Below are positions 3,910 through 47,696 of a stretch of 60,740 nucleotides of DNA, piece after piece (position 1 is the stretch's first letter; each line of letters starts with the position of its first letter). The notes below the pieces were generated by a model. The model had not been told where the DNA came from and ran no database searches. It saw nothing but the letters and a program-made list of their open reading frames with translations. The translations under genes were made by a program, and so were the position numbers. The stretch is from Minisyncoccota bacterium (GTDB lineage: Bacteria > Patescibacteriota > Minisyncoccia > Phycocordibacterales > UBA9973), in the NCBI GenBank assembly GCA_041663185.1, contig JBAZQY010000003.1, forward strand, positions 1 to 60,740. The letters run 5' to 3'.

Positions 3910-5724
3910 TTAAACGAAAACCGCTTTAATCCGACGAATACCCGAAGCGACAGCTTCTTCTTTTTGAATTTTAAATACACCCAATTCACTAGTGTTTGAA
4001 ACGTGTGGCCCGCCACAAAATTCTTTTGAAATATAATTACCATTCTCGTCTTCAATAAAATAGACAGAAACAGTTTCTGGGTATTTTGCTCCAAATTCCA
4101 TCTCGGCACCAATCATTTTGGCTTCAGTTAGAGGCATATCTTTATGAATTACTTTCAAATTTCTTTTTATTTTATCATTTACCCAGTCTTCCACTTTTTT
4201 CTTTTCCTCATCTGTAAGTTTATGGTCGCACATAAAATCCATACGTAAACGTTCTTCGGTGATATTACTACCCCTTTGTTTGATATTTCCATCAATAACA
4301 TTTTGTAATCCAGCCAAAAGTAAATGATGCGCGGTGTGAAGTCGAACAGTTTTCTCATTGTGGTCCGCTAGTCCGCCTTTAAATGTCCCCGCACTAGATG
4401 TGCGGGAAAGCTCTTGGTGCTCTTTTAATTTTTGATTAAAATCTTCTAAATCAACAGTTTTACCTTTTTCTTTGGCTAATTCAACAATAAGTTCAATCGG
4501 AAATCCATATGTCGTAAACAAAATAAATGGATCGGCCCCCTTTTCAAATTCGCGAATTCCATGTTCGAGTGTTAGGCGAAACTTACTTTCTTCCACATCA
4601 ATTTCTTTTTGAATAATTTCTTTATTTTTTAAAAGCTCTGGATATGTATTTTTATATTTTTCTATTACTATTTCTGAAAGAGCCAGTAAAGACCCATGTT
4701 TAAGAGAAATAAGATCCGAATGCCTGACTGCTCGACGAAGAACTCGACGTAAGATATATCCACGGCCTGTATTTGATGGTAAAACCCCATCAGCAATTAT
4801 AAAAACCGCCGTGCGGATGTGGTCAGCGACAATTCTAATTTGGCGTCTGGTGTCAACAAAATATTGTTTACCATCATTAATATATTCTTCATCTGATTTG
4901 TCTCCATAAGAAAGTCCTGAAAGTTCCTCTATCTTTTCTATAATCGGTAAAAATAAATCTGTCTCATAAGTACTTCTTTTACCTTGGACCATAGTTGTCA
5001 CCCGCTCTAGCCCTGCTCCAGTATCAATATTTTTTTGTGGAAGTTCTCCAACAATTTCGCCATTGACTTGATTGTAAGTCATAAAAACATCATTCCAAAT
5101 CTCTACAACTTTTTGTTCATCTTCAGCCAGATTGAATTCTTCTGCTGTTAAATCACCAAGCTTGCCAGTGACATCATAGAACATTTCTGTACTTGGGCCA
5201 GCTGGTGAATTGAGCCCAGCACTCCACCAATTTGATTTTGAATTTTTATAATAAATACGATGCTCTGGTATACCAAGTGATTTCCAAATTTCTACTGATT
5301 CCTTATCGGCTTCGAGTTTTTCATTTCCAGAAAAAACAGTCACATATAATCTTGCAACATCCAAGCCCAATCCTTCTTCTTTTCCCGTTAGAAATTCATA
5401 ACTCCACGAAATAGCTTCTTTTTTAAAATAATCACCAAGCGACCAATTCCCCATCATTTCAAAAAAAGTGTTGTGGGTATTGTCTCCGACTTCACTTAAA
5501 TCTATTGTTCTTAAACATTTTTGAAAATTGACTAGTCGGACTCCCTGTGGATGTGGCTCACCTAAAAGATAAGGAACAAATGGTTGCATCCCAGCTGTGT
5601 TAAAAAGTGTGGCATCCATAGCCCCAGCTATCGTTGTGGTCACAAGCGAAGCTGAGGGAACATAGGCATGTCCTCTTTTTTCAAAAAACTTTAAAAATCG
5701 TGATCTAATTTCATCTGACTGCAT
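3910..5724 (-). CDS. alaS: Alanine--tRNA ligase, short form (catalytic + editing domains, no C-Ala)
   Basis: TLFNTAGMQPF, HNTFFEMMGNWSLGDYFK, IDTGAGLER, editing motifs HTAHH and EFCGGPH. Start moved to MQSDEIRSRF (5724). Confidence 0.97.
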   Translation of the reverse strand: MQSDEIRSRFLKFFEKRGHAYVPSASLVTTTIAGAMDATLFNTAGMQPFVPYLLGEPHPQGVRLVNFQKCLRTIDLSEVGDNTHNTFFEMMGNWSLGDYFKKEAISWSYEFLTGKEEGLGLDVARLYVTVFSGNEKLEADKESVEIWKSLGIPEHRIYYKNSKSNWWSAGLNSPAGPSTEMFYDVTGKLGDLTAEEFNLAEDEQKVVEIWNDVFMTYNQVNGEIVGELPQKNIDTGAGLERVTTMVQGKRSTYETDLFLPIIEKIEELSGLSYGDKSDEEYINDGKQYFVDTRRQIRIVADHIRTAVFIIADGVLPSNTGRGYILRRVLRRAVRHSDLISLKHGSLLALSEIVIEKYKNTYPELLKNKEIIQKEIDVEESKFRLTLEHGIREFEKGADPFILFTTYGFPIELIVELAKEKGKTVDLEDFNQKLKEHQELSRTSSAGTFKGGLADHNEKTVRLHTAHHLLLAGLQNVIDGNIKQRGSNITEERLRMDFMCDHKLTDEEKKKVEDWVNDKIKRNLKVIHKDMPLTEAKMIGAEMEFGAKYPETVSVYFIEDENGNYISKEFCGGPHVSNTSELGVFKIQKEEAVASGIRRIKAVFV

Positions 5725-7306: not shown

Positions 7307-7312
7307 ACAATG

Positions 7313-7383
7313 AGATGTGGGTAGGAATTGAACCTACGATATATCTCTTGCGGAGATATGCCTTACCACTTGGCTACCACATC
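7313..7383 (-). tRNA. tRNA-Cys(GCA)
   Basis: Cloverleaf GATGTGG/CCACATC acceptor stem, U73 discriminator, T-loop TTCAATT, anticodon loop CC-GCA-AG (C at position 33). Confidence 0.9.
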
Positions 7384-8538: not shown

Positions 8539-8568
8539 AAATTTATTAAAAATAGGTTGTGGAATATT

Positions 8569-8618
8569 AATTTTATGAGTCGTGTCGGAGCCCTTTAGGG
8601 TAAAGCGCGAATAAAATT
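8569..8618. repeat. Hairpin element, core family A (copy 1, degenerate arms)
   Basis: Core cgtgtcggagccctttagggtaaagcg at 8581-8607, one mismatch to the cores at 9633 and 29305. Confidence 0.85.
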
Positions 8619-8647
8619 GATATGCCACAACCTATTTCATTCACTAT

Positions 8648-9603: not shown

Positions 9604-9687
9604 AGATCTGCATGATCATTAAAATTTTTATCCGTGTCGGAGCCCTTTAGGGTTAAGCGGGAAAAATTTTAATGATTATGCAGATCT
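9604..9687. repeat. Hairpin element, core family A (copy 2)
   Basis: ~26-bp near-perfect arms (agatctgcatgatcattaaaattttt) around core 9633-9659. Confidence 0.9.
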
Positions 9688-18951: not shown

Positions 18952-19656
18952 CTATATTATAAGTGCTAGATGTTCTAAAATCATTTTGACCGATGCTCCG
19001 GGGGTACTCAAGTATCCACGAGCTTTTTGTAATTCACTTAAAATAAATTGCGTCTTTTCATTTTTTTTATCTTTTTTAAATTTTTGGTAGAAAACATTTT
19101 CGAGTTCATTTACAAATGTCGTTGCATAAAATCGTAATTGGCCACTATTATCTTCATCTTTGTTTTCTTTTACAATTTGAGCAACTTGATCAATTCTCTC
19201 TTTGGGAGTAGCTGTTAAAAATATAGTGACAGATTTTTGTAAATCTTTACCAGTTAATTGTTCTGTTTTGACAACATGAGTTCTTGATAAAATCGTTCCC
19301 GCTAATCGAGATGCATCTGGAACTACAATAAAAAAATGGGTATTTTCTGTTGGTTCTTCTATTATTTTTAAAAGTGTTTGCTCAGCTTCACGATTTATAA
19401 ATTTGGTCGCGACAATACAAACTTTTTTACCTCCACTAATTCCTCGTCGATTATGCCAATCTTTTATTTCACCATTATCATTCATCGTGAACGATTCATA
19501 AACTTGAAATAAAACATCGGGGCTCTGACTTTTAATTTCGCCGCGCACCTCCAAAAACTTCAACAACTCTACTCCTGTTGTTTCCGGCTCTCCTTCTACT
19601 ACATAACTATGATATAAATTTTGTGGAAATAGTTCTTCAAAAATGTTTTTTGTCAT
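18952..19656 (-). CDS. holB: DNA polymerase III delta' subunit-like protein
   Basis: YHSYVVEG, SPDV, AEQTLLKIIEEP, LAGTILSR. Confidence 0.8.
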   Translation of the reverse strand: MTKNIFEELFPQNLYHSYVVEGEPETTGVELLKFLEVRGEIKSQSPDVLFQVYESFTMNDNGEIKDWHNRRGISGGKKVCIVATKFINREAEQTLLKIIEEPTENTHFFIVVPDASRLAGTILSRTHVVKTEQLTGKDLQKSVTIFLTATPKERIDQVAQIVKENKDEDNSGQLRFYATTFVNELENVFYQKFKKDKKNEKTQFILSELQKARGYLSTPGASVKMILEHLALII

Positions 19657-19663
19657 ATATTCT

Positions 19664-19690
19664 TCTCCGCTAGGACTTTCCTAGCGGAGA
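19664..19690. repeat. REP-like 27-bp palindrome, copy 1
   Basis: tctccgctagga-ctt-tcctagcggaga. Confidence 0.95.
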
Positions 19691-19704
19691 TCTTAATAAA
19701 TAAT

Positions 19705-20289: not shown

Positions 20290-20325
20290 ATTTTTATTAT
20301 ATATTAATTTAATCTAAAATCATTT

Positions 20326-20352
20326 TCTCCGCTAGGACTTTCCTAGCGGAGA
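20326..20352. repeat. REP-like 27-bp palindrome, copy 2
   Basis: Identical to copy 1; abuts the RAYT stop codon. Confidence 0.95.
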
Positions 20353-21009
20353 TTAATTTTTAAAAGATAACCATTCAAATATTTCCTTTTTAAAATATTT
20401 TTCCGTGGAAAAATACTGAGGAAAATTATCTATATTTAAAACTTTGTTCTGAACTCTATTTTCTCCTAAATAATCAGCATAACTAGAATATTTATACTCA
20501 TTTAAAAATTTAAGGGCTTGATTTTTATTTTTAATCCCTTCTTCTTTCCATTTTTTATCTATAAGTTTTATTGGATTAAGATGTATGTAAGAATATAAAT
20601 ATTTTAAATATCTATCATGATCTACATGCTCTGCTTTAAACTTACCCTCAAAAAGACTTCCTGTTCTTTCGTATTTTTTATTAAAATACATTACATAAGC
20701 AGTTAAAAGCTTTTTCATAAACTTACTAATTCCTTCATCTTCTTTTTGTATAATTAAAATATGAAAATGGTTAGGCATTAAACAATATGCTCCTATACTA
20801 ACTAAAAGATTTTTTCTTTTTACATTAAAAAGACCCTCATCTTTCTGTAAATTATCAGATTTAAAATTTTCAATTTGATTACAAGCATACATTAAGCCGA
20901 CAAAACGCTTATAATCTTCTTTATCTTTAAAAATAACTTTTTTATCATTTCCACGATTGTAAAGATGAAAATATTCACCTTGAATAAATTTTATTTTTCG
21001 TAGTGCCAT
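20353..21009 (-). mobile_element. REP-associated tyrosine transposase (RAYT, Y1 HUH family)
   Basis: HLYNRG, AYCLMPNHFHIL (HUH), YFNKKYERTGSLFEGKF, catalytic YIHLNP; flanked by inverted REP copies. Start moved to MALRK (21009). Confidence 0.93.
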
Positions 21010-21030
21010 GTTTATATTATATAACAATAT

Positions 21031-21057
21031 TCTCCGCTAGGAAAGTCCTAGCGGAGA
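21031..21057. repeat. REP-like 27-bp palindrome, copy 3 (opposite orientation)
   Basis: tctccgctagga-aag-tcctagcggaga, the reverse complement of copies 1 and 2. Confidence 0.95.
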
Positions 21058-21068
21058 ATTCATAAATG

Positions 21069-28187: not shown

Positions 28188-28280
28188 CAGGCTATATATA
28201 AAATTTTTTGAGTAGGTGTGGGCGCGCGCCGAGGCGAAGCCGAGGTAGGGATAAGCGAGAAAAATTTTATATATAGCCTG
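28188..28280. repeat. Hairpin element, family A-related (expanded core)
   Basis: Perfect 21-bp arms caggctatatataaaattttt; 51-nt core shares GTGTnGGnGC...TAGGGnTAAGCG with family A. Confidence 0.85.
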
Positions 28281-29270: not shown

Positions 29271-29287
29271 CGGTTGCCAAAAAATAA

Positions 29288-29347
29288 ACACTAAAATTAT
29301 TTTTCGTGTCGGAGCCCTTTAGGGTTAAGCGAAAATAATTTTAGTGT
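29288..29347. repeat. Hairpin element, core family A (copy 3)
   Basis: Arms acactaaaattatttt around core 29305-29331, which is identical to 9633-9659. Confidence 0.9.
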
Positions 29348-29377
29348 ATATTTTTTAGCTAAAATTATTCTTATTTT

Positions 29378-30139
29378 TTACAAATTTTGATTAGCGAGTA
29401 TTCCTTCTAGAATTTCTAGTTCTGCTTTAGAGTTTGGTTGGAAAATTTCCATCATATTTACAAGTGGCACTCCTTCCACTTTTTCTTCATCTCGGAAAGC
29501 CATTTTAATCAAATCCGGCAGATAATACTCCCCAGCCGCATTGTTATTTTTTATTTTATCAATATTCTCCCAGAGCCAATTTGCATCAAAAGCGTAGATA
29601 GCAGGATTTATTTCTTTTATTTTTCTTTCTTCTTCATTTGCATCTTTATATTCAATAACCTCAACAACTTCTCCTTTTTCATTACGGACAATTCTCCCTA
29701 AAAAATAGGCTCCAGCACGCCAATCTTTAAAATCTGGTAAAATAACAGTTCCCATAGTTATAACCGCTCCACTGTTTTTATGAGCTTCAATAATACTTTC
29801 AATTGTATCTCTTGAAATTAAAGGTTGATCGTTCGACAGAACAAGGACTGTTTTATGGTCAGGGTGAGTTGAACTCTTAGCAGACATAACGGCATGGCCG
29901 GTTCCTAATTGTTCTTCTTGATGAGCATAATTATAATCTTTACCAATGACTTCAAAAATTCTTTCTTTTTTGTGTCCAACAACAATCACTGGATCAATTG
30001 ATAGATTTAAATGAGAAATTGTATCTAAAATATGTTGCAAGAATGGCTTCCCCTGAAGCATAGCAAGAGCCTTAGGATCATCAGACTCCATTCTCTTTCC
30101 CTTCCCTGCTGCTAAAATTATTATTTGTGTATTTTGCAT
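29378..30139 (-). CDS. GlmU-like N-acetylglucosamine-1-phosphate uridyltransferase domain (no acetyltransferase domain)
   Basis: [38 protein letters not shown]; 253 aa. Confidence 0.85.
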
Positions 30140-30159
30140 AAATTTCTAAATGTGATAGA

Positions 30160-30287
30160 GGATTCGGCTATTACATAGCCAGGTACTTTTCCACCTCACT
30201 TCGCTCGTAAGGAAAAATCTTTCGAATCCCTTACACAAGCAAAGCAGTTTGCTTGCTATCGCGAATAAAATTACTGTCGTAATTTTG
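30160..30287 (-). repeat. Structured module downstream of tRNA-Val
   Basis: Several hairpins, two of which recur with compensatory changes downstream of tRNA-Glu. Confidence 0.65.
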
Positions 30288-30360
30288 TGCGCGATAAGGG
30301 ATTCGAACCCCTGGCCTACCCCACGTCAAGGGGTCGCTCTACCAACTGAGCTAACCGCGC
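30288..30360 (-). tRNA. tRNA-Val(GAC)
   Basis: GCGCGGT/ATCGCGC acceptor stem, anticodon loop TT-GAC-GT, T-loop TTCGAAT. Confidence 0.95.
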
Positions 30361-30376
30361 GTATCTAATTTGGTTG

Positions 30377-30463
30377 CGGAGGGTACAGGATTTGAACCTG
30401 TGATCCTCTTTCGAAGATTCCGCTTTTCGAAAGCGGTGCATTCAACCTCTCTGCCAACCCTCC
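30377..30463 (-). tRNA. tRNA-Ser(CGA)
   Basis: GGAGGGT/ACCCTCC acceptor stem, G73, loop TT-CGA-AA, long variable arm. Confidence 0.95.
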
Positions 30464-30508
30464 GCGCCAAGTATACAAAAATAAGGACCAAAAATCAATT
30501 TAACAAAC

Positions 30509-32017
30509 CTAATCAAACAGACAGATTCCCGTCATTTCAGATGGTTTTGGAATTTCAAACAATTTTAAAATAGTAGGAGCAACATCCGCCAAAGTCCCTT
30601 CATGTAGAGGTTTTGTTATTTCTGTAATGATAAATGGAACTAGACTTGTCGTATGTGATGTATGTCTTAATCCAGTTTCTGGGTCAATATTTATTTCCGC
30701 ATTTCCGTGATCAGCAGTTATACATGCTATTCCATTATTAAACTTAAGAGCTTCTAATATTCTACCTATTTGCTTGTCTGTTTCTTCTATTGCAGTAATT
30801 ATTGCTGGAACATTAGAAGTATGCCCAACCATATCTGGATTCGCAAAATTCACAAAAATAAAATCGGTTCCTTTTTCTATCTGTTTAATTGCTTCATCTG
30901 CAACCCCTTCCGCTGACATTCTGGGAGCAAGGTCGTATGTTAGGACACCCTTGGGACTTTGAATAAGTATTTGATCTTCTTTCTCATATGGAGTTTCTTC
31001 CCCGCAATTAAGAAAATATGTTGCATGTGCAAATTTTTCGGTTTCAGCAATGTGAGCTTGGGACATACCATTTTCACTGATTACCTTTCCTAAAGTTATT
31101 TCAAATTTCAATGGAGGAAAAACGACATGACTTTGAAACTCTTTTCCGTAATTCGTCATTGTTGCCAAAAAGATATTATCAGCTTTTGATCTCTCAATAA
31201 TTTTTTGTGTTAACATTCTCATTCGATCAGCCCGAAAATTAAACAAGAAGAATCCATTATTCTTACTCAGTGTATAAGTGCCACCATTTTTATTTAGACA
31301 AACAAATGGCTCTAAGTATTCATCTGATTTAACCTCATCTTTATATAAATCCTCAAGAAAATTAGAGGCCCTTGTATCACAAATCCTCCCCTTACCCTCA
31401 AACATTACTTCTTCTGTTTTAGCTAGACGTTCCCAGCGCTTATCTCTATCCATCGAATATAATCTTCCGGAAACTGACGCAATTTCACCAACACCTAACT
31501 TATTAATAAAATCTTCTAATTCTTTAATATATTTTGCTCCGTCTTGAGGTGGAGTATCTCGCCCGTCAGTAATAACATGAATGGCTATTTTCTTAATATT
31601 ATTTTCTTTTGCTACTTCTAAAAAAGAAAATAAGTGCGATATGTGACTATGAATACCTCCTGGAGAAACAAGCCCTCCAACATGCAAAACTGAATCATAT
31701 TTTTTAACATGATTAAATAAATTTTGAAGAATGAGATTATTCTTAAATTCTCCACTAGAAATAGATTTATTTATTCTGATTAAATCTTGATCTAAAACTC
31801 TTCCTGCCCCAATTGTCATATGCCCCACCTCACTATTACCCATTTGTCCCTCGGGTAGTCCTACCGCTTCCCCAGAAGCCTTAAGAGTAGTATGAGAATA
31901 CTTATCCCAAAGATTATCAAAAACAGGTTTATTGGCTTGCGCAATTGCATTGTCTTTAGTTTCTTCTCTATATCCCCAACCATCAAGAACAATCAAGGCA
32001 ATTTGTTTTTTCTCCAT
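30509..32017 (-). CDS. gpmI: 2,3-bisphosphoglycerate-independent phosphoglycerate mutase
   Basis: LIVLDGWG, GQMGNSEVGH, DGRDT, NFRADR, NPDMVGHT, TADHGN. Confidence 0.98.
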   Translation of the reverse strand: MEKKQIALIVLDGWGYREETKDNAIAQANKPVFDNLWDKYSHTTLKASGEAVGLPEGQMGNSEVGHMTIGAGRVLDQDLIRINKSISSGEFKNNLILQNLFNHVKKYDSVLHVGGLVSPGGIHSHISHLFSFLEVAKENNIKKIAIHVITDGRDTPPQDGAKYIKELEDFINKLGVGEIASVSGRLYSMDRDKRWERLAKTEEVMFEGKGRICDTRASNFLEDLYKDEVKSDEYLEPFVCLNKNGGTYTLSKNNGFFLFNFRADRMRMLTQKIIERSKADNIFLATMTNYGKEFQSHVVFPPLKFEITLGKVISENGMSQAHIAETEKFAHATYFLNCGEETPYEKEDQILIQSPKGVLTYDLAPRMSAEGVADEAIKQIEKGTDFIFVNFANPDMVGHTSNVPAIITAIEETDKQIGRILEALKFNNGIACITADHGNAEINIDPETGLRHTSHTTSLVPFIITEITKPLHEGTLADVAPTILKLFEIPKPSEMTGICLFD

Positions 32018-32120
32018 ATTTTAATTATATCATATCATTTGAAAGAAAAATTGTTTGACAAAATATGATTTTGGTACTAAAGTGAAGAAAACGTAAGTCA
32101 AATCTTTAAAAATAAAAGCC

Positions 32121-32744
32121 ATGAAAAAAATTCTTTGGACAATGATTATCTTAGCGATATTGTCCTTTACTGCGCTTTGCTTGGGTATTTGTAATGTTAT
32201 TGGGCAAACAAGTATTGTGCCTGATCTCTTTAATTCCAATGTTCATCTCCAATTCACAAGGGCTGAACAAGATTCTATCCTTAAATCAAGAACGTACCTC
32301 ATAAAAAACCTGCTTCCAAAAGACCCTAGTAGAAAACTTTGGTGCCAGGATAGCGGATTCCATAACGGGAATGAATATAAGATATCGTTTAAATTCGGGA
32401 AAAAGGATACTTCTATAAATTTTTTCTATTTTTATTTGGTGCAAAACGATCTTCACACGGCCATACGTTATTGGCCGAAGAAAAATGCAACGGTAATTCT
32501 CATTTTTACCTTCAAGGAACCCTGTGAGTATTGTGTGGGCTTTGATGAAATGAGATTTGGTGAATTTAAAGAAGCCTACACTGAAGCTGATTATTTTGAT
32601 TTCTCGCGACGGGAAAAGCCAAAATATGTCTGGCTCAGAATCCCGGAGATAAGCACAATCCAGCCATCGGTCCTCAATGATTTTATAGAAATAACTGACA
32701 ACATTATTGAGGGTGGAAATGATGTATATGTAATTAAAGAATGA
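32121..32744 (+). CDS. Hypothetical secreted protein
   Basis: 207-aa ORF with a signal-peptide-like N-terminus. Confidence 0.6.
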   Translation: MKKILWTMIILAILSFTALCLGICNVIGQTSIVPDLFNSNVHLQFTRAEQDSILKSRTYLIKNLLPKDPSRKLWCQDSGFHNGNEYKISFKFGKKDTSINFFYFYLVQNDLHTAIRYWPKKNATVILIFTFKEPCEYCVGFDEMRFGEFKEAYTEADYFDFSRREKPKYVWLRIPEISTIQPSVLNDFIEITDNIIEGGNDVYVIKE

Positions 32745-32763
32745 ACCTTAAAAAATTAATGCG

Positions 32764-33282
32764 ATGACACAGCAAGCCAAAATTATGTCAAATTATCCAG
32801 TAGCAAGTAGAGTAATCGTATTTGCTTCAGCTGGAGTTGTTTATGAGGGGGTTGTTTCCTATCATTTACCAGCATCGCGTGTTCGTCCACACGTTTTGGT
32901 TATTGAAAATGGAAATCAGAACTTGCTGACTTTCATTTTCTTTACAAGATTAGATGGAACAAAAGGCTGGGTCTTGGTACCCAACGAGTCTACTTCTGGG
33001 CAATCAATTGCACAGACAGACCCGATTTACTCAATCAAAAAAGTTGAGTTACCTGCCGGTAAAAAAAGGTTTTCTTTCGTTGAATGTACTTGCCCTGAAC
33101 TTGAAAACAAAAAACATGGGCATATATTTGACCACATTGAGGGTAAAAATGCTACACCTCACATTTATAACCCCAAAGACGCAAGGAATTATTTTAAATT
33201 CCTTAAAAGCCTTGGTCGTATCTTCTGTGAAGATAAAGACAGTATAAAATGTGTTCTGTTAGAAGTCAGAAATTATTTCTGA
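32764..33282 (+). CDS. Hypothetical protein
   Basis: 172-aa ORF followed by a terminator. Confidence 0.6.
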   Translation: MTQQAKIMSNYPVASRVIVFASAGVVYEGVVSYHLPASRVRPHVLVIENGNQNLLTFIFFTRLDGTKGWVLVPNESTSGQSIAQTDPIYSIKKVELPAGKKRFSFVECTCPELENKKHGHIFDHIEGKNATPHIYNPKDARNYFKFLKSLGRIFCEDKDSIKCVLLEVRNYF

Positions 33283-33300
33283 TCTTCTGTAAGATATAAT

Positions 33301-33330
33301 AAAGGGTCTCACATCGTGGGCCCCTTTTTT
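33301..33330 (+). terminator. Intrinsic terminator
   Basis: aaagggtctcac-atc-gtgggccc followed by a U-tract. Confidence 0.65.
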
Positions 33331-33445
33331 GTTTATAGTATTGATTGGCTGGGCAAGACTTAGTCATTTTCTATTGAGGACTGTCTTTACTAGCCCATCT
33401 TGCAAAAATAGTAAATTGGGGGTAATGTGTAGAAAAAAGAATAAG

Positions 33446-33886
33446 ATGAAAGAAATTACTAATTTTATTTTTCCGTTTAATCCTCGGGTGTTTAAAGTGG
33501 GAGATCGAGTAAAAATATATTTTAAAGATAAATGGTGGAAAGGAATAATTGATCATTTTACTCCAGCAAGAGAAGAGATGTTTAAAGTTTGGTTCAATTC
33601 ATTTTTAAAAAAAGATCCTAAAATAGAAATAGTTGGAGAAGGAATTTCTTGTGGATTAAAATCAGTTATTTATAATGATTACCATAATGCCCGAATGCAC
33701 ATAAAAACGGATGAAAAAGTAGATGACGAAGATGGTGCACTTTTTGATGGTTATGGAATAAGATCAAGTTGGGGAGGGAAAGATATACTTTTTGAAGATG
33801 AACTTGAGTATATTCCAAAACCAGAATTTATTTTCTTAGATGAAACATCTGAAGAAAATTATGAAGGAGATGATTTACCTTTTTAG
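33446..33886 (+). CDS. Hypothetical protein (SH3/Tudor-like N-terminal signature FKVGDRV...WWKGII)
   Basis: Start moved to MKEITNF; acidic C-terminus; followed by a terminator. Confidence 0.55.
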   Translation: MKEITNFIFPFNPRVFKVGDRVKIYFKDKWWKGIIDHFTPAREEMFKVWFNSFLKKDPKIEIVGEGISCGLKSVIYNDYHNARMHIKTDEKVDDEDGALFDGYGIRSSWGGKDILFEDELEYIPKPEFIFLDETSEENYEGDDLPF

Positions 33887-33887
33887 A

Positions 33888-33920
33888 AGCCACTAGAATT
33901 TATTCTGGTGGTCTTTTTTT
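33888..33920 (+). terminator. Intrinsic terminator
   Basis: agccactagaat-tt-attctggtggt followed by a U-tract. Confidence 0.65.
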
Positions 33921-33992
33921 CTATAGCCATAAGAAATTCAAATTGGCATCAGATTGTGGAGAATATATTTGAATTTAAAAATTAATATATAC

Positions 33993-34076
33993 TTAGCAAG
34001 GACAGTCCTTGCTAATTTCTTGCTAATTTTAGGACAGTCCTTGCTAATTTGTTGCTAATTTGACTGTCCTTGCGAA
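33993..34076. repeat. REP-like palindrome plus 32-bp tandem repeat cluster
   Basis: ttagcaaggac-a-gtccttgctaa, then units starting at 33999 and 34031, then a half copy. Confidence 0.85.
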
Positions 34077-34658
34077 TCTTAATTTTATCCAATCTTGCTC
34101 CTGTTGTTTTTTGTTTCGAGTTTTTTGAGCAAGACCAGATGTGTGATAAACTGGAAATATATTTATAGAACAATCTTTAATGGGCGTCCCAATATTATTT
34201 TTAAGTTTATATTTTCTAAGAGTTTTAGATTCAGGATATGTTTTCTTAATTGAATATAATGCACTGTTACCTAATGGAACTATTAATTCCGGATTTGCTA
34301 ATTTTATTTGTTTTTTTAATATAGATAAATTGTTTTTTTGAGCCAATTCTTTTTGAAGTGGAGCATAATTCCTACGTTTTCCTGTTGGTACCCATATAAT
34401 TGCATTAGTTATAAATATATATTTTCGGAAATTTATCCCGAATGTTTTTATGAATAAGTGTTTAAAAAGTTTTGCTGAAGGATCACAATTTTCAAAAGAA
34501 ACAATTTCAGCTTTTGGTCCTGGACGTTCATTTATAAATAAAATTTTTATTCTATTTTTTCCTGGTATACCATTTTTAAGATCATTACTAGGTATAATGA
34601 CCTTTTTATTCCTGTTACATTTTTCACATTGTTTTCTATACTTTTCAAAAAAATTCAT
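34044..34658 (-). CDS. Uracil-DNA glycosylase superfamily protein
   Basis: CEKC, ILFINERPG, FITNAI, IVPLG, VYHTS. Confidence 0.8.
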   Translation of the reverse strand: MNFFEKYRKQCEKCNRNKKVIIPSNDLKNGIPGKNRIKILFINERPGPKAEIVSFENCDPSAKLFKHLFIKTFGINFRKYIFITNAIIWVPTGKRRNYAPLQKELAQKNNLSILKKQIKLANPELIVPLGNSALYSIKKTYPESKTLRKYKLKNNIGTPIKDCSINIFPVYHTSGLAQKTRNKKQQEQDWIKLRFARTVKLATN

Positions 34659-34676
34659 ATTTTTTCAATAATTTAC

Positions 34677-35044
34677 ATGCTTCGCATTCATAATCTATGT
34701 GAGCCACAAGTTACTAAATATACCAGGACCGCGAGTACGCTTATCGGTCATTACATGACCAGTATACCTTTTCAAAATATTTTTACAAGATAAAAATATT
34801 TAATGAAAAGCTTTTCGCTTCCCGGACATGAGCAAAGCAGTTTGCTCACTTAGGGTAATTGGAGTGCTTCGCACACTAGACTGTTGTGGTCACAAGTTAC
34901 TAAATATTTTGCTCCAAGTATTCTCAAAATATGTAAGTACTCGCGACCCCAGCTCGGCAATTTTTCTGCTGAAAAATTATGCCTGCGTCTTCACAAAAGC
35001 GAAAAAGACTGGAGCAGTCCAGTCTTTTTGCATTCGCGCTTTTG
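34677..35044 (-). repeat. Highly structured region downstream of tRNA-Glu
   Basis: At least 7 hairpins, a 17-bp direct repeat (34705 and 34891) and the module shared with the tRNA-Val downstream region. Confidence 0.65.
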
Positions 35045-35116
35045 TGACCCTACCGGGAATCGAACCCGGATTACCGGCTTGAAAAGCCGATGTCCTAACC
35101 GTTAGACGATAGGGCC
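35045..35116 (-). tRNA. tRNA-Glu(TTC)
   Basis: GGCCCTA/TAGGGTC acceptor stem, loop TT-TTC-AA, T-loop TTCGATT. Confidence 0.95.
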
Positions 35117-44915: not shown

Positions 44916-47696
44916 TTAAACTTCAAACTTTTTATTAATATATCCTTTCTTTACCTCAATGGATCCAGAGGTATGGACCAGAGAATAACTCTCATCAGCA
45001 TTTTTATTTTCAATTTTAATATAGTAAGTTCCATTAGGAATCAAACAATAATATTTTCCGGTTTTGTCGGCAACTTTATGGGTAATTTCATTCTGACTCC
45101 CCGAAAAGAAAACCCGCAACACTGCAAACGACAATGGATTCGCTGAAATCTTTTCTTTAATACTTCCATATGTTCTTGGCTTTAATATTGTATTTTTCAA
45201 TATATACATTAATCCATAAAGAGCCAGAATTACAATATTATAAGTAATTGGTGAAGTAATAACCGCAATAATTGTTACAATAAAACCTGAATAAAAAATT
45301 ATATTTGAAATTCTTGATAACCAAAGCTGTTTTTTGGAAAAGAAATTCATCAACTTTTTTTCTTTTTTCTCAAATTCATTCCAATCAAACTTGATCGGAT
45401 CCATTGGAATGTTTTTAGTAATCACTTCGTCTTTTCTAACTTCAATAACATCATTAAAATACAAATTCTGATAAAGTTCATCTTCTGTCTGTCCTTTTAA
45501 TTTATTTGATGGAAATTTATAATTTGTCTTACTAGCAATCATTTTGTATTTACCGGGTGGAACAAGAAAACCGTAACGCCCATCGAGATCTGTAATAGAA
45601 GTTGCTATTTCTTTACCATCTAAATTCTGTAACACAATATATGCTGGATCTAATGGTTGTTTGGTCACAGAGTCATAAACTGTCCCCCAAGGATTTTGAA
45701 GTTTTTTCATTCCGAAAAAGGCTAAAAGCATACTCCAAAGTCGCATTGGGATAAAATATATTTCTTTAAATGAAATTGGATTAACAAAAAGAATTTTTGA
45801 AAAACTAGAAAAAGCTCCTATCAATAAAGCCGTAAAAGCAAAGGCCATTACTATAAAATTATTACGGGGTTCTGGAACAACTTCTACAGGAGCAATAACA
45901 CAATAACCATTCTGGTTTAATTCCATTCCTTCAGGAATTATTTCTTGGATATCATTTATATTTGGACAAACATCAATCGGTGGATTAATCACCACAATAT
46001 TTACACAATCACCTTGATCATTTAATTCCATTCCATCGGGAATTGTTTCTTGAAGATCATCTATATTTTTACAAAGATCAACTGGCACGGTGGTTAAAAT
46101 TATTTTGACACAATTACCATTATTATCTATTTTCATTCCATTTGGAATTATTGTTTGCTCTCCATTTATATTTGGACAAACATCAATCGGTGGATTAATC
46201 ACCACAATATTTACACAATCACCTTGATCATTTAATTCCATTCCATCGGGGATAGCAATTTGCGCTCCATTTATATTTCTACATAAATCCGGATCAGTTC
46301 TTATAACTGTTATAATATTCCCTGTATTAGATGGGCATCTATCTGTAGTTAATGTTTGGTCTGCCCCATAACCAGTACCAGCACTATTAGTTGCATAGGC
46401 ACGGTAGTGATATGTTGTATCACAAGTTAATTCAGAAATTCCAGTATTAAAAGATTCAGCTCCAAAAGAACCAGTTGCTGTAGTGGTTGTACCATAACTA
46501 TCGGTTAAGCCATATTGGAAACCGACAGTTGTTGCATTTTCCCCACCAGTACTTGAAATTGTTCCATTTAGAGTGGCAGTGGTTCTTTCAATTGATGTCG
46601 CCGAAAGAGTAGTTACTGATGGAACAGTAATTGGACTGGCTATTAAAAATGTTTGATCGGCTCCATAACTTGTAGCCGTGCTATTTGTCGCATAAGCTCG
46701 ATAATGATACGTCGTGTCTAGAGACAAAGAAGAAAGATCCGACGAATATGATTCAACACCTAAAGTTCCTACTGGTATTGTGCCTCCAGTATAAGTAATG
46801 TCTGTTCCATATTGAAAACCAGCAACAGGATTTTCTCCTCCAGTGTCAAGAATATTACCATTTAATCTAATGACTGCATCTCCTGGGGCGGCCATCGCTA
46901 CTTGAATAATATTCATAAATGTTTTTCTTATGGGTCCTTGTGCTATCGGTGCTACTATCAACACAGCTGGATCAGTTTCTACGACAGGTGGATTACAAGA
47001 TAAGGTATCAAAAGATACATTTCCACCATCAGCTCCACCATAAGCATGATAAGTATAAGTAGTACTACAACTTAGATTATTCATCGTTAGAGAAAATGCT
47101 CCAACTCCATACGGTTGGCCGTCAGTTTCTGTAGAAGTATATGATAAGATTCCCCCATTTGGATTAGTCCCAGAAATTACAAATCCTCTTTGGGAAATAG
47201 GAGCTCCAACAGAGTCAATTGATCCATTTAAAGTTGCTGAGTTTAAACCAATTCCTGTTGCAGCGTTGGTTGTCACAACAGTTGGAGACGGACAAGCTGT
47301 TGTAGTAAACGTCATATCTTCTCCATACCCAAAAAGTCCGGCCTCATTTTTAGCATAAGCTCGATAATGATACAGAGTTCCACAAGTTCCCAGAAGCCCA
47401 CCTATACTTTCTGAGTATACTCCAGTTGGTAAACCAAAAGGATCATCGCCAATAAAAATTAAATCACTAATTTCATAGGCTATAGTTTCTCCGTATTCAA
47501 AATATCTTAGAACAATAGGACTATCGCCACTATTTGTAATATTCCCAGTTAAGGTAACTGAATCATTTGTAATATCTGAAGACCCAACAGTAATAACCGT
47601 CGGAGGAGTAGCTGCTGAAATTAATGTAAAAACCAAGAAGACAGATATTCCTGTAAAAAAACACAAAAAGATAGTCAGTTTTTTCTTATTTGACAT
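44916..47696 (-). CDS. Large surface/membrane protein: FN3-like repeats, DxCxNI Cys-repeats, carboxypeptidase-regulatory-like domain
   Basis: Four ATLNG...YHYRAYA...GYG repeats; five D(L/V)CxNIxxxQxxIPxGM...GxCV repeats; TM helices; GTVYDSVTKQPL...TDLDGRYGF. Confidence 0.75.
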   Translation of the reverse strand: MSNKKKLTIFLCFFTGISVFLVFTLISAATPPTVITVGSSDITNDSVTLTGNITNSGDSPIVLRYFEYGETIAYEISDLIFIGDDPFGLPTGVYSESIGGLLGTCGTLYHYRAYAKNEAGLFGYGEDMTFTTTACPSPTVVTTNAATGIGLNSATLNGSIDSVGAPISQRGFVISGTNPNGGILSYTSTETDGQPYGVGAFSLTMNNLSCSTTYTYHAYGGADGGNVSFDTLSCNPPVVETDPAVLIVAPIAQGPIRKTFMNIIQVAMAAPGDAVIRLNGNILDTGGENPVAGFQYGTDITYTGGTIPVGTLGVESYSSDLSSLSLDTTYHYRAYATNSTATSYGADQTFLIASPITVPSVTTLSATSIERTTATLNGTISSTGGENATTVGFQYGLTDSYGTTTTATGSFGAESFNTGISELTCDTTYHYRAYATNSAGTGYGADQTLTTDRCPSNTGNIITVIRTDPDLCRNINGAQIAIPDGMELNDQGDCVNIVVINPPIDVCPNINGEQTIIPNGMKIDNNGNCVKIILTTVPVDLCKNIDDLQETIPDGMELNDQGDCVNIVVINPPIDVCPNINDIQEIIPEGMELNQNGYCVIAPVEVVPEPRNNFIVMAFAFTALLIGAFSSFSKILFVNPISFKEIYFIPMRLWSMLLAFFGMKKLQNPWGTVYDSVTKQPLDPAYIVLQNLDGKEIATSITDLDGRYGFLVPPGKYKMIASKTNYKFPSNKLKGQTEDELYQNLYFNDVIEVRKDEVITKNIPMDPIKFDWNEFEKKEKKLMNFFSKKQLWLSRISNIIFYSGFIVTIIAVITSPITYNIVILALYGLMYILKNTILKPRTYGSIKEKISANPLSFAVLRVFFSGSQNEITHKVADKTGKYYCLIPNGTYYIKIENKNADESYSLVHTSGSIEVKKGYINKKFEV

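Follow-up and report, generated by a model that had tools for sequence, protein, structure and literature searches.

The stretch of DNA analyzed here (the window) comprises 60,740 nucleotides of a Minisyncoccota bacterium (GenBank assembly GCA_041663185.1, contig JBAZQY010000003.1) and has a GC content of 34%. ARAGORN and Rfam, applied to the whole window, placed all four of its tRNA genes on the minus strand: tRNA-Cys at 7312-7383, tRNA-Ser at 30376-30463, tRNA-Val(GAC) at 30287-30360 and tRNA-Glu(UUC) at 35044-35116. A structured element, which we call the module, lies at lower coordinates beside each of the last two genes and, because these genes are on the minus strand, is thus downstream of tRNA-Val and of tRNA-Glu. 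A sequence-only reading of the window had noticed two hairpins that occur in the same order 3' of these two tRNAs, and had proposed either a tRNA-targeting mobile element or an undescribed non-coding RNA co-transcribed with tRNAs. We found both hairpins, letter for letter, where it had placed them. It overlooked the central feature of the module, whose flanks copy and complement the tRNA 3' end that lies upstream. The two modules are members of a large undescribed family in candidate-phyla-radiation (CPR) bacteria.

The two modules of the window

The Val module (30150-30264; all features in this and the next paragraph are on the minus strand and are described in the sense of the tRNA) belongs to class A and scored 116.6 bits with the covariance model introduced below. 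From the T loop to the discriminator, tRNA-Val ends in GAAUCCCUUAUCGCGCA, to which the arms of the module are tailored. A trailer hairpin (AAAAUUAC-GACA-GUAAUUUU, 30267-30286) is located directly 3' of the tRNA; it is too weak for a terminator score because its stem is nearly all A-U. The module then begins with an antisense arm, P0-5' (UCGCGAU, 30258-30264), that complements the acceptor 3' strand of tRNA-Val (AUCGCGC) at 6/7 positions. It continues with the hairpin P1 (CAAGCAAA-CUGC-UUUGCUUG, 30236-30255) and a second antisense arm, P2-5' (AAGGGAUUC, 30224-30232), that complements the 3' strand of the T stem and the 3' half of the T loop, so that UCGCGAU...AAGGGAUUC as a whole is the complement of tRNA-Val ...GAAUCCCUUAUCGCGC. 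Next come the hairpin P3 (30185-30218), with a conserved base (AUUUUUCC/GGAAAAGU) and a variable apex, and the hairpin P4 (GGCUAU-GUA-AUAGCC, 30166-30180). The unit ends in DR2 (30150-30165), which directly repeats the tRNA-Val 3' end in decayed form (GAAUCCUCUAUCACAU versus GAAUCCCUUAUCGCGC); 11 of its 16 remaining positions match the tRNA. Relative to the syntenic locus L031, DR2 has been shortened by a deletion of about 120 nt. Because this repeat has decayed, the window copy does not fold as a minihelix in minimum-free-energy (MFE) predictions. An open reading frame (ORF) for a nucleotidyltransferase starts at 30139, 10 nt past the module.

The Glu locus is composite, consisting of a terminator-like hairpin, a type II unit and a class-B module, together with a direct repeat of about 43 nt that brackets the module. 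Here the arms are tailored to the tRNA-Glu 3' end, UCCCGGUAGGGUCA. The hairpin (AAAAAGACUGG-ACUG-CUCCAGUCUUUUU, 34992-35046) scores as terminator-like and is nested in a 10-bp inverted repeat (CACAAAAGCG / CGCUUUUGUG) that starts in the last bases of tRNA-Glu. The type II unit (34888-34980), a divergent unit of the same superfamily, combines a UUUUUCAGCAGAAAAA hairpin with a helix, GGGGUCGCGAG...ACUUGUGACC, two of whose pairs are G.U when read on the tRNA-sense strand; no tRNA 3'-end repeat was found after this window copy. The class-B module itself (34721-34857, 55.1 bits) contains P0-5' (UACCCUA, 34851-34857), P1 (34829-34848), P2-5' (CCGGGA, 34820-34825), P3 (34768-34810), P4 (34746-34760), an extra hairpin, P5 (GCG-UACU-CGC, 34731-34740), and P2-3' (UCCUGG, 34723-34728). 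Its arms, UACCCUA...CCGGGA, complement UCCCGGUAGGGU of tRNA-Glu, with an A-U pair where the tRNA has G2.U71. DR2 has kept only its T part, the acceptor part having been lost. The bracketing repeats are imperfect (AUAUUUAGUAACUUGUGACCAC...UGCGAAGCA); the upstream copy is at 34865-34907 and the downstream copy at 34678-34721, just before an ORF of the UDG family that starts at 34658.

P4 and P1 are the first and second hairpins of the sequence-only reading, and the AT-armed hairpin that it saw between them is P3, which has a U/A-rich base in both copies. The compensatory stem changes it had described were confirmed: on the plus strand, CAA/TTG is replaced by TGA/TCA in the first hairpin and CT/AG by TC/GA in the second. 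A hairpin starting with CACAAAA indeed follows both tRNAs directly (30267-30286 and 34992-35046). In the window, GCAAAGCAGTTTGC occurs exactly at 30239-30252 and 34832-34845 only, and no further match was found there when up to 2 mismatches were allowed; shuffled sequences gave a mean of 0.46 matches, and 8/100 shuffles reached 2. TCGGNNATTACATNNCCAG occurs exactly at 30164-30182 and 34744-34762. Neither the string search nor the covariance model detected a third module copy in the window. The two window copies alone are weak evidence, and the decisive confirmation is the family.

A family of modules with arms tailored to the upstream tRNA

Metagenomes were scanned for both hairpins in order, using the pattern AAACTGCTTT, a gap of 50-80 nt and CTGGNNATGTAATNNCC. 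This pattern gave 69 metagenome loci, and a slightly looser one gave 69 loci in species-representative genomes. A covariance model built on 39 copies confirmed all of the metagenome loci (83 hits) and 53 of the genome loci (66 hits, or 68 with the two window copies); it also recovered divergent copies that are invisible to the pattern. In total, the family amounts to about 150 covariance-model hits in about 120 loci from metagenomes or metagenome-assembled genomes (MAGs). The further copies sought for the sequence-only reading thus exist in large number. Among model-positive genomes with informative labels, nearly all are Patescibacteria (Paceibacteria/Paceibacterota, Nomurabacteria, Minisyncoccia, or generic "Saccharibacteria" or "Patescibacteria"), and as far as MAG labels allow, the element is confined to this group. 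Fifteen pattern loci of the genome set that were checked by name and carry labels other than Patescibacteria (Weissella, Thiofilum, Neisseria, Chitinophagales and others) had no model hit and were treated as chance. Three model-positive loci were from MAGs labelled Burkholderiales, Bacteroidetes and Christensenella; these contigs have a GC content of 31-38% and were probably mis-binned. Scans of viral contigs gave two chance matches in coding sequence, and none with the second pattern.

Rfam 15 returned nothing at the modules of the window, either at the gathering threshold or, with relaxed filters on either locus, at E<=10, leaving only sub-threshold noise such as ryfA (20.9 versus 80 bits) and models of miRNAs and snoRNAs. 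No match to a known Rfam family thus speaks against the sequence-only reading. We found no description of the family in the literature searched, and the protein of the neighboring gene had no exact-sequence match on record.

Intact members share one architecture in a unit of 110-170 nt. They open with the P0-5' arm, about 7 nt that complement the preceding tRNA along its acceptor 3' strand; a 2-nt linker, P1 (an 8-bp hairpin with a 4-nt loop) and a 3-nt linker come next. The P2-5' arm has 5 nt complementary to the 3' strand of the T stem and about 5 nt complementary to the 3' half of the T loop. Then follows the conserved core, which consists of the junction CGAAAG, P3 with a conserved base (YUUUUC/GAAAAR) and a free apex, the junction (Y)AC-CUG, and P4, a stem of 5-6 bp. 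The sequence-only reading had called the loops invariant; this holds for the P4 loop, YGUAR, which is kept family-wide, and not for the P1 loop, which varies across the family. The 3' strand follows P4 without a linker and pairs back to P2-5' and P0-5'. In a subclass, a 3-bp mini-hairpin, P5, is inserted between tRNA positions 59 and 60 of this strand; it is fully paired in 28/34 copies by at least 7 pair combinations (GCG/CGC, GUG/CAC, AUG/CAU, GGC/GCC and others). The arms and the repeat thus form a coaxial minihelix of 7 + 5 bp that resembles an acceptor/T arm, in which P1 occupies the position of the D and anticodon arms and the T loop is replaced by the core. P0 to P4 were recovered when intact copies were folded by MFE.

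Because a MAFFT alignment of classes A and B misaligned the 3' end at the P5 insertion, the model was built from class A only and the remaining copies were aligned to the model; an automatic procedure that used complementarity to the arms to trim the 3' repeat did not work reliably. In the 39 sequences, 89.3% of cells pair. In 115 distinct copies, 90.6% of cells pair and 37/38 pairs covary, 0/500 shuffles reached the observed values, and controls with slid positions paired at 32-49%. These data bear out the claim of selection on structure. P1, P3 and P4 are paired at 98-99.7% and P2 at 88-89%; P0 is paired at 60-70%, and both P2 and P0 covary. Moreover, G.U pairs outnumber A.C combinations by 42 to 9 in P1, P3 and P4 and by 41 to 14 in P2, suggesting that the structure is read on the tRNA-sense strand.

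We next examined the position of the modules relative to tRNA genes. A same-strand tRNA ends 5-60 nt before 73 of the pattern copies and is located upstream of 48/65 hits in the genome set, where 25 anticodons are represented; altogether, the preceding tRNAs belong to 16 amino-acid families. Going downstream, 51 modules are followed by a same-strand ORF, 26 by the end of a convergent gene, 12 by a tRNA and 6 by a further module. The 12 copies that precede another same-strand tRNA do so at a median distance of 47.5 nt and are thus inside tRNA clusters. The exact direct repeat of the tRNA 3' end (DR2) is most often 18-20 nt long. It starts at tRNA position 56 in 34/64 copies, or at position 60 where P5 is inserted, and ends at position 74-77, 1-4 nt beyond the discriminator; a few repeats run up to 34 nt further. 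Most tRNA genes examined in the window and in related loci lack an encoded CCA, and many enter a conserved CA(A)A-type trailer (in the window, from 30286 and 35043 downward), of which the terminal repeat of the module usually takes in the first 1-4 bases.

The arms follow the 3' strand of the tRNA closely. At sites where the stems of the tRNA have a G.U pair or a mismatch, the arm is the Watson-Crick partner of the 3' strand in 20 versus 2 cases for the acceptor stem and, again, in 20 versus 2 for the T stem. The arms are thus complements of the 3' strand and not copies of the tRNA 5' strands, and we rejected the idea that the module is a degenerate second copy of a whole tRNA. The extension of the arm pairs with the gene-encoded trailer at 68/84 positions, whereas it would pair with CCA at 40/84, so that the partner is the gene or the primary transcript rather than the mature tRNA. 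The same comparison rejects a primer-binding site of the retroviral type, which would complement the mature tRNA. At positions that distinguish the true tRNA end (DR1) from DR2, the arm fits DR1, by 45 versus 5 in the acceptor part and 14 versus 1 in the T part. Two classes of about equal size were seen. In the short-spacer class, the module abuts the tRNA, the acceptor arm is complementary at 4-6/7 positions and DR2 is intact. In the long-spacer class, a terminator-like hairpin with a U run separates the two; arm, trailer complement and terminator together make a single, long and perfect palindrome with the tRNA 3' strand. When whole transcripts of tRNA and module were folded with RNAfold, the acceptor 3' strand of the tRNA was predicted to pair with the arm in 18/18 loci.

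Comparison of related loci showed how the modules change. L031 is syntenic with the window, both having the order tRNA-Ser, tRNA-Val, hairpin, module, nucleotidyltransferase. Between them, about 1 position in 8 differs in the aligned start of the ORF, but only 1 in about 100 nt of the module core; in tRNA-Val, positions 67 and 70 of the acceptor 3' strand differ, and the arm has changed exactly at the partner positions. At tRNA-Leu(UAG), L050 has an empty site and L066 a filled one, which equals the empty site plus the module and an 18-nt repeat; at tRNA-Lys(CUU), the site of L025 is empty and those of L028, L050 and L066 are filled. Tandem arrays of modules are found in L021, L059, L060 and L110. 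Copies within a locus or genome are diverged (identity 0.2-0.86), far below their best matches in other genomes, and orthologues reach 0.99. Because copies of one locus are far less alike than copies between genomes, a recent intragenomic burst or concerted evolution was rejected.

Nearest neighbors in the family share the amino acid of their tRNA in 26% of cases (8% expected), and cores that are at least 90% identical link modules behind tRNAs for Arg, Gly, Ile, Leu, Trp, Tyr and Val. Among these cores, the P3 apex is 86% identical and the arms only 52%, which is near the 37-40% of unrelated copies. This indicates that core lineages moved between tRNA genes and that the arms were re-fitted faster than the P3 apex drifts. 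In L031, the orthologue of the window Glu module (4451-4599) has no tRNA within 200 nt upstream and is preceded by a terminator-like hairpin, and ARAGORN found no tRNA-Glu across these 12 kb, which shows that a module and its tRNA can part. Taken together, the direct repeats of tRNA 3' ends, the presence/absence polymorphism and the identical cores behind different tRNAs show past mobility, whereas the G.U asymmetry, which marks the tRNA-sense strand, and the copies inside tRNA clusters favor a co-transcribed RNA. Both options of the sequence-only reading gained support, and each is probably true in part.

A candidate tRNA-trailer RNA and its alternatives

The closest known analogue of the family is RtT RNA (RF00391; rttR), the 178-bp repeats distal to tyrT/tyrV of E. 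coli. We examined the tyrT locus of E. coli K-12 directly as a reference. It contains six occurrences of the terminal 19 nt of tRNA-Tyr (T loop to CCA), four RtT units were detected at 133-138 bits with the same model library as used for the window, and the RtT consensus closes with GGGGAAGGAU/AUCCUUCCCC, that is, the complement and the copy of the tRNA-Tyr 3' end. Like RtT, the module lies directly 3' of a tRNA gene on the same strand, may form tandem arrays, ends in a direct repeat of about the terminal 19 nt of the tRNA from the T loop (family-wide; the repeats of the window are decayed), and is closed by a helix between this repeat and an upstream complementary strand. Unlike RtT, which in the E. 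coli locus checked is associated with tRNA-Tyr only, the module stands behind 16 amino-acid families with re-tailored arms, is found in a different taxon, has an extra hairpin (P1) between the acceptor complement and the T complement that gives a tRNA-like topology, and follows tRNA genes without encoded CCA, so that its repeat ends in the gene-encoded trailer. The core is different, without similarity in sequence or model: RF00391 (gathering score 45 bits) had no hit in the window, either at the gathering threshold or at E<=10. Because the architecture is shared while the core differs and RF00391 gives no score, we describe the module as RtT-like and not as a member of the RtT family. RtT RNA was described as being involved in the processing of the tyrT transcript and possibly in the stringent response (10.1101/2024.07.17.603846).

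We propose, with a probability of roughly one half, that the module is an RtT-like tRNA-trailer RNA encoded on the tRNA strand, and that recombination at the repeated tRNA 3' end accounts for its spread or loss. The module would be transcribed by read-through from the tRNA or within a tRNA cluster. The minihelix and the tRNA-identical 3' end would let RNase P, RNase Z or exonucleases free a discrete RNA of about 120-150 nt, whose conserved junction core may bind a partner that is likewise conserved. In a transcript that is not, or not yet, processed, the antisense arm could instead capture the 3' strand of the tRNA itself. The direct repeats would allow deletion of a unit, duplication into arrays and transfer between tRNA genes, and the arms might be kept perfect either by hairpin-templated (quasi-palindrome) correction or by selection for pairing. 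Release by tRNA-processing enzymes has precedents in mascRNA from MALAT1, the tRNA-like domain of tmRNA and bacterial YrlA. Like these, the module has a coaxial helix of 7 + 5 bp resembling the acceptor/T arm, and a 3' strand and discriminator identical to those of a tRNA. Unlike them, it lacks the T loop as well as the D and anticodon arms, and the sequence of its helix is not fixed and copies the neighboring tRNA. ARAGORN, RF00005 and the tmRNA model called only the four true tRNAs in the window and none of the modules.

Several points weigh against this proposal. The transcription, the processing and the binding partner of the module are what we infer from sequence. The main facts that the proposal explains poorly are the frequent intervening terminator and the decay of the acceptor part of DR2. 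Read-through may be low, because a terminator-like hairpin and a U run precede about half of the modules. In many copies DR2 has decayed in its acceptor part, yet the 5' arm still fits the true tRNA; both window copies have a decayed DR2, and the Glu copy is behind a scored terminator. With P0 only 60-70% paired, the tRNA-like closure is not always maintained, the two window copies included. Perfect Watson-Crick arms also erase identity features of the tRNA, such as G3.U70 in an Ala-linked copy, and the module RNA is therefore not a faithful tRNA mimic. Folded single-stranded DNA would fit the G.U/G.T tolerance, too. In addition, the counts carry an ascertainment bias, in that the scans fixed 23 nt of sequence and the large alignment was fitted to the model.

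An explanation at the level of DNA only is, in our view, possible, if rather unlikely. The module would be a non-autonomous mobile element or recombination site whose single strand folds to rebuild the duplex of the tRNA-gene 3' end, mimicking an att site; a recombinase encoded outside would insert it at the T loop, with the repeats as att core, and RNA, if made at all, would be a by-product. Repeats that start at the fixed T-loop position 56 and run variably past the tRNA end are typical of tRNA-targeting integrases, whose integrative elements reportedly use the tRNA 3' end from the T loop or the anticodon loop as att core. As with such elements, the repeat leaves the tRNA intact and orthologous sites are filled or empty, differing by exactly the module plus the repeat. 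The tandem arrays, the single core lineage behind 7 tRNA families with different arms, and the exact Watson-Crick complementarity to the gene including its trailer, and not to CCA, fit this explanation as well. The preference of the arm for the functional tRNA over the displaced repeat would be expected if the tRNA-proximal repeat and the arm travel together. GCGAAGC, which forms an unusually stable DNA mini-hairpin, recurs in the P3 apex and in the repeats of the Glu locus. Folded single-strand DNA recombination sites are exemplified by integron attC and CTX-phage attP; as in these, two inverted segments tens of nt apart rebuild the chromosomal target duplex, and the structure is conserved more than the stem sequence. 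However, tRNA-targeting integrative elements carry an integrase and cargo, whereas the module has neither in its 110-170 nt; what it has instead is a folded core that is conserved and, inside the unit, the complement of the repeat. No ORF for an integrase, recombinase, transposase or any other protein was found inside the units; to our knowledge, no recombinase is associated with the module, and the genes near the window modules are housekeeping genes (nucleotidyltransferase, iPGM and UDG, besides three ORFs without a Pfam match), though a conserved neighbor was not searched for in the other loci. The element-side sequence beside the repeat is unlike the T-stem 5' strand, which leaves no duplex core site. 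Unlike attC and attP, the module is strictly in the sense of tRNA transcription and embedded in tRNA clusters, and its old, divergent copies within a genome, as opposed to the 0.99 identity of orthologues, argue against recent bursts and for a constraint at the level of the host.

If the module acts as RNA, it might do so only in cis, as a switch on the tRNA precursor in which the antisense arm competes with the 5' strands of the tRNA for its 3' strand and the repeat serves as a decoy that releases the tRNA. The balance would control whether read-through transcripts mature or pass quality control, or whether they terminate at the hairpin in between, without a trans-acting RNA. The predicted pairing of the arm with the acceptor 3' strand in all 18 folded transcripts, the complementarity of the long-spacer class, which continues through the trailer and around the terminator hairpin, and the fit of the arm to the real tRNA rather than to DR2 are all consistent with such a switch, and Rfam classes the analogue RtT as cis-regulatory. 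Nevertheless, we find it doubtful: a three-way-junction core with invariant junction nucleotides would be superfluous for plain strand competition, the short-spacer class combines weak acceptor arms with intact repeats, and MFE predictions omit co-transcriptional folding, the tertiary structure of the tRNA and processing. A regulator of the downstream gene, such as a T-box-like leader or riboswitch, or a set of look-alike ordinary terminators, is largely refuted and, in our view, hardly credible. The window copies do stand 10 and 62 nt before same-strand ORF starts, and some hairpins of the region score as terminator-like. However, across the family the 51 same-strand ORFs are set against 26 convergent gene ends, 12 tRNAs and 6 modules, the downstream genes of the window (nucleotidyltransferase and UDG) are unrelated to Val or Glu, and neither a T-box nor any other Rfam family was hit. 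A T-box was rejected also because neither the anticodon nor NCCA is what the arms complement, their match being with the acceptor/T 3' strand and the trailer, and because the features downstream are heterogeneous. P1 and P4 lack U runs, and the family-wide covariation rules out chance. Known small self-cleaving ribozymes (hammerhead, twister, pistol, hatchet and others) gave no Rfam hit at E<=10 with permissive filters, and by inspection, junction lengths of 5-6, 4-5 and 0 nt do not fit a hammerhead core.

A bolder possibility, which we consider improbable, is a self-tailoring, tRNA-templated system. The arms would be re-derived at each new tRNA gene, and the RNA would be a split guide whose two segments flanking P1 address the 3' end of the pre-tRNA or the tRNA gene, either for 3' processing or modification of the tRNA or as a homing device resembling a bridge RNA, with a recombinase encoded elsewhere. 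As for the RtT-like trailer RNA that we prefer, if that proposal is true, the module would rank with the most abundant structured non-coding elements in CPR genomes of the Paceibacteria type, tiny genomes with hardly any DNA to spare, with several copies per genome behind tRNAs of most amino-acid families. RtT/tyrT, for 40 years a curiosity of a single E. coli locus, would then exemplify a general architecture of a tRNA 3' copy, its complement and a folded core. This would offer a comparative handle on the roles of tRNA-trailer RNAs, on how tRNA 3' ends seed repeats and on how arms are re-tailored to each tRNA. The covariance model would help annotators to avoid calling such regions noise, pseudo-tRNAs or integration scars.

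Further features of the Glu locus and of the window

The type II core of the Glu locus is found elsewhere in the same scaffold as the module (arm, CGAAAG, core, tRNA 3' repeat), namely in L003, L025, L042, L108 and L123. The same core variant was also observed at L097, L018, L014, L068 and L120, and some type II loci, the window among them, have no following tRNA 3' repeat; the variant probably deserves a covariance model of its own. The heptamer GCGAAGC is present on the minus strand in both direct repeats of the Glu locus (34679-34685 and 34866-34872). It is found as well in the P3 apex of many class-A copies (GAGCGAAGCGAG) and in the RtT units of E. coli (L141), and across the window its enrichment was not significant (4 versus 2.3 expected). 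Class-B copies carry GGUAUACUGG at the junction of P3 and P4. Within the Glu module of the window, this sequence yields a promoter-like match (TTGTAA-16-TATACT, 34761-34788, minus strand) directed at the UDG-family gene; it is probably a chance match, given that the region has 28 such sites and 22 were expected.

A second repeated structured element occurs at 8560-8627, 9612-9679 and 29284-29351, with a partial copy at 28246-28269. It forms a long A/U-rich stem whose sequence varies yet stays paired, with a conserved apical motif, CGUGUCGGAGCCCUUUAGGGUUAAGCG, and its fold z-scores are -6.5 to -8.9. It had no Rfam hit in the window, and the motif is missing from all 141 fetched loci. A G+C-rich hairpin, UUCUCCGCUAGGA-CUUU-CCUAGCGGAGA, is present in three copies (19646-19691, 20308-20353 and 21013-21058) spaced by about 660-700 nt, which look like repeated terminator-type hairpins between short genes.

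Between the two loci of tRNA and module, three consecutive ORFs of 207, 172 and 146 amino acids without a Pfam match (32121-33886, plus strand) run opposite to the flanking genes. At 33993-34061, two tandem 32-nt units, AGGACAGTCCTTGCTAATTT(C/G)TTGCTAATTT, each contain the palindrome TTAGCAAGGAC(A/T)GTCCTTGCTAA and score as terminator-like on both strands; they overlap the last codons of the UDG-family ORF at its 3' end and come after a convergent unannotated ORF. A repeat finder also detected tandem repeats at 281-1087 and 45898-46289, with periods of 126 nt and 105 nt and a unit identity of 68-82%.

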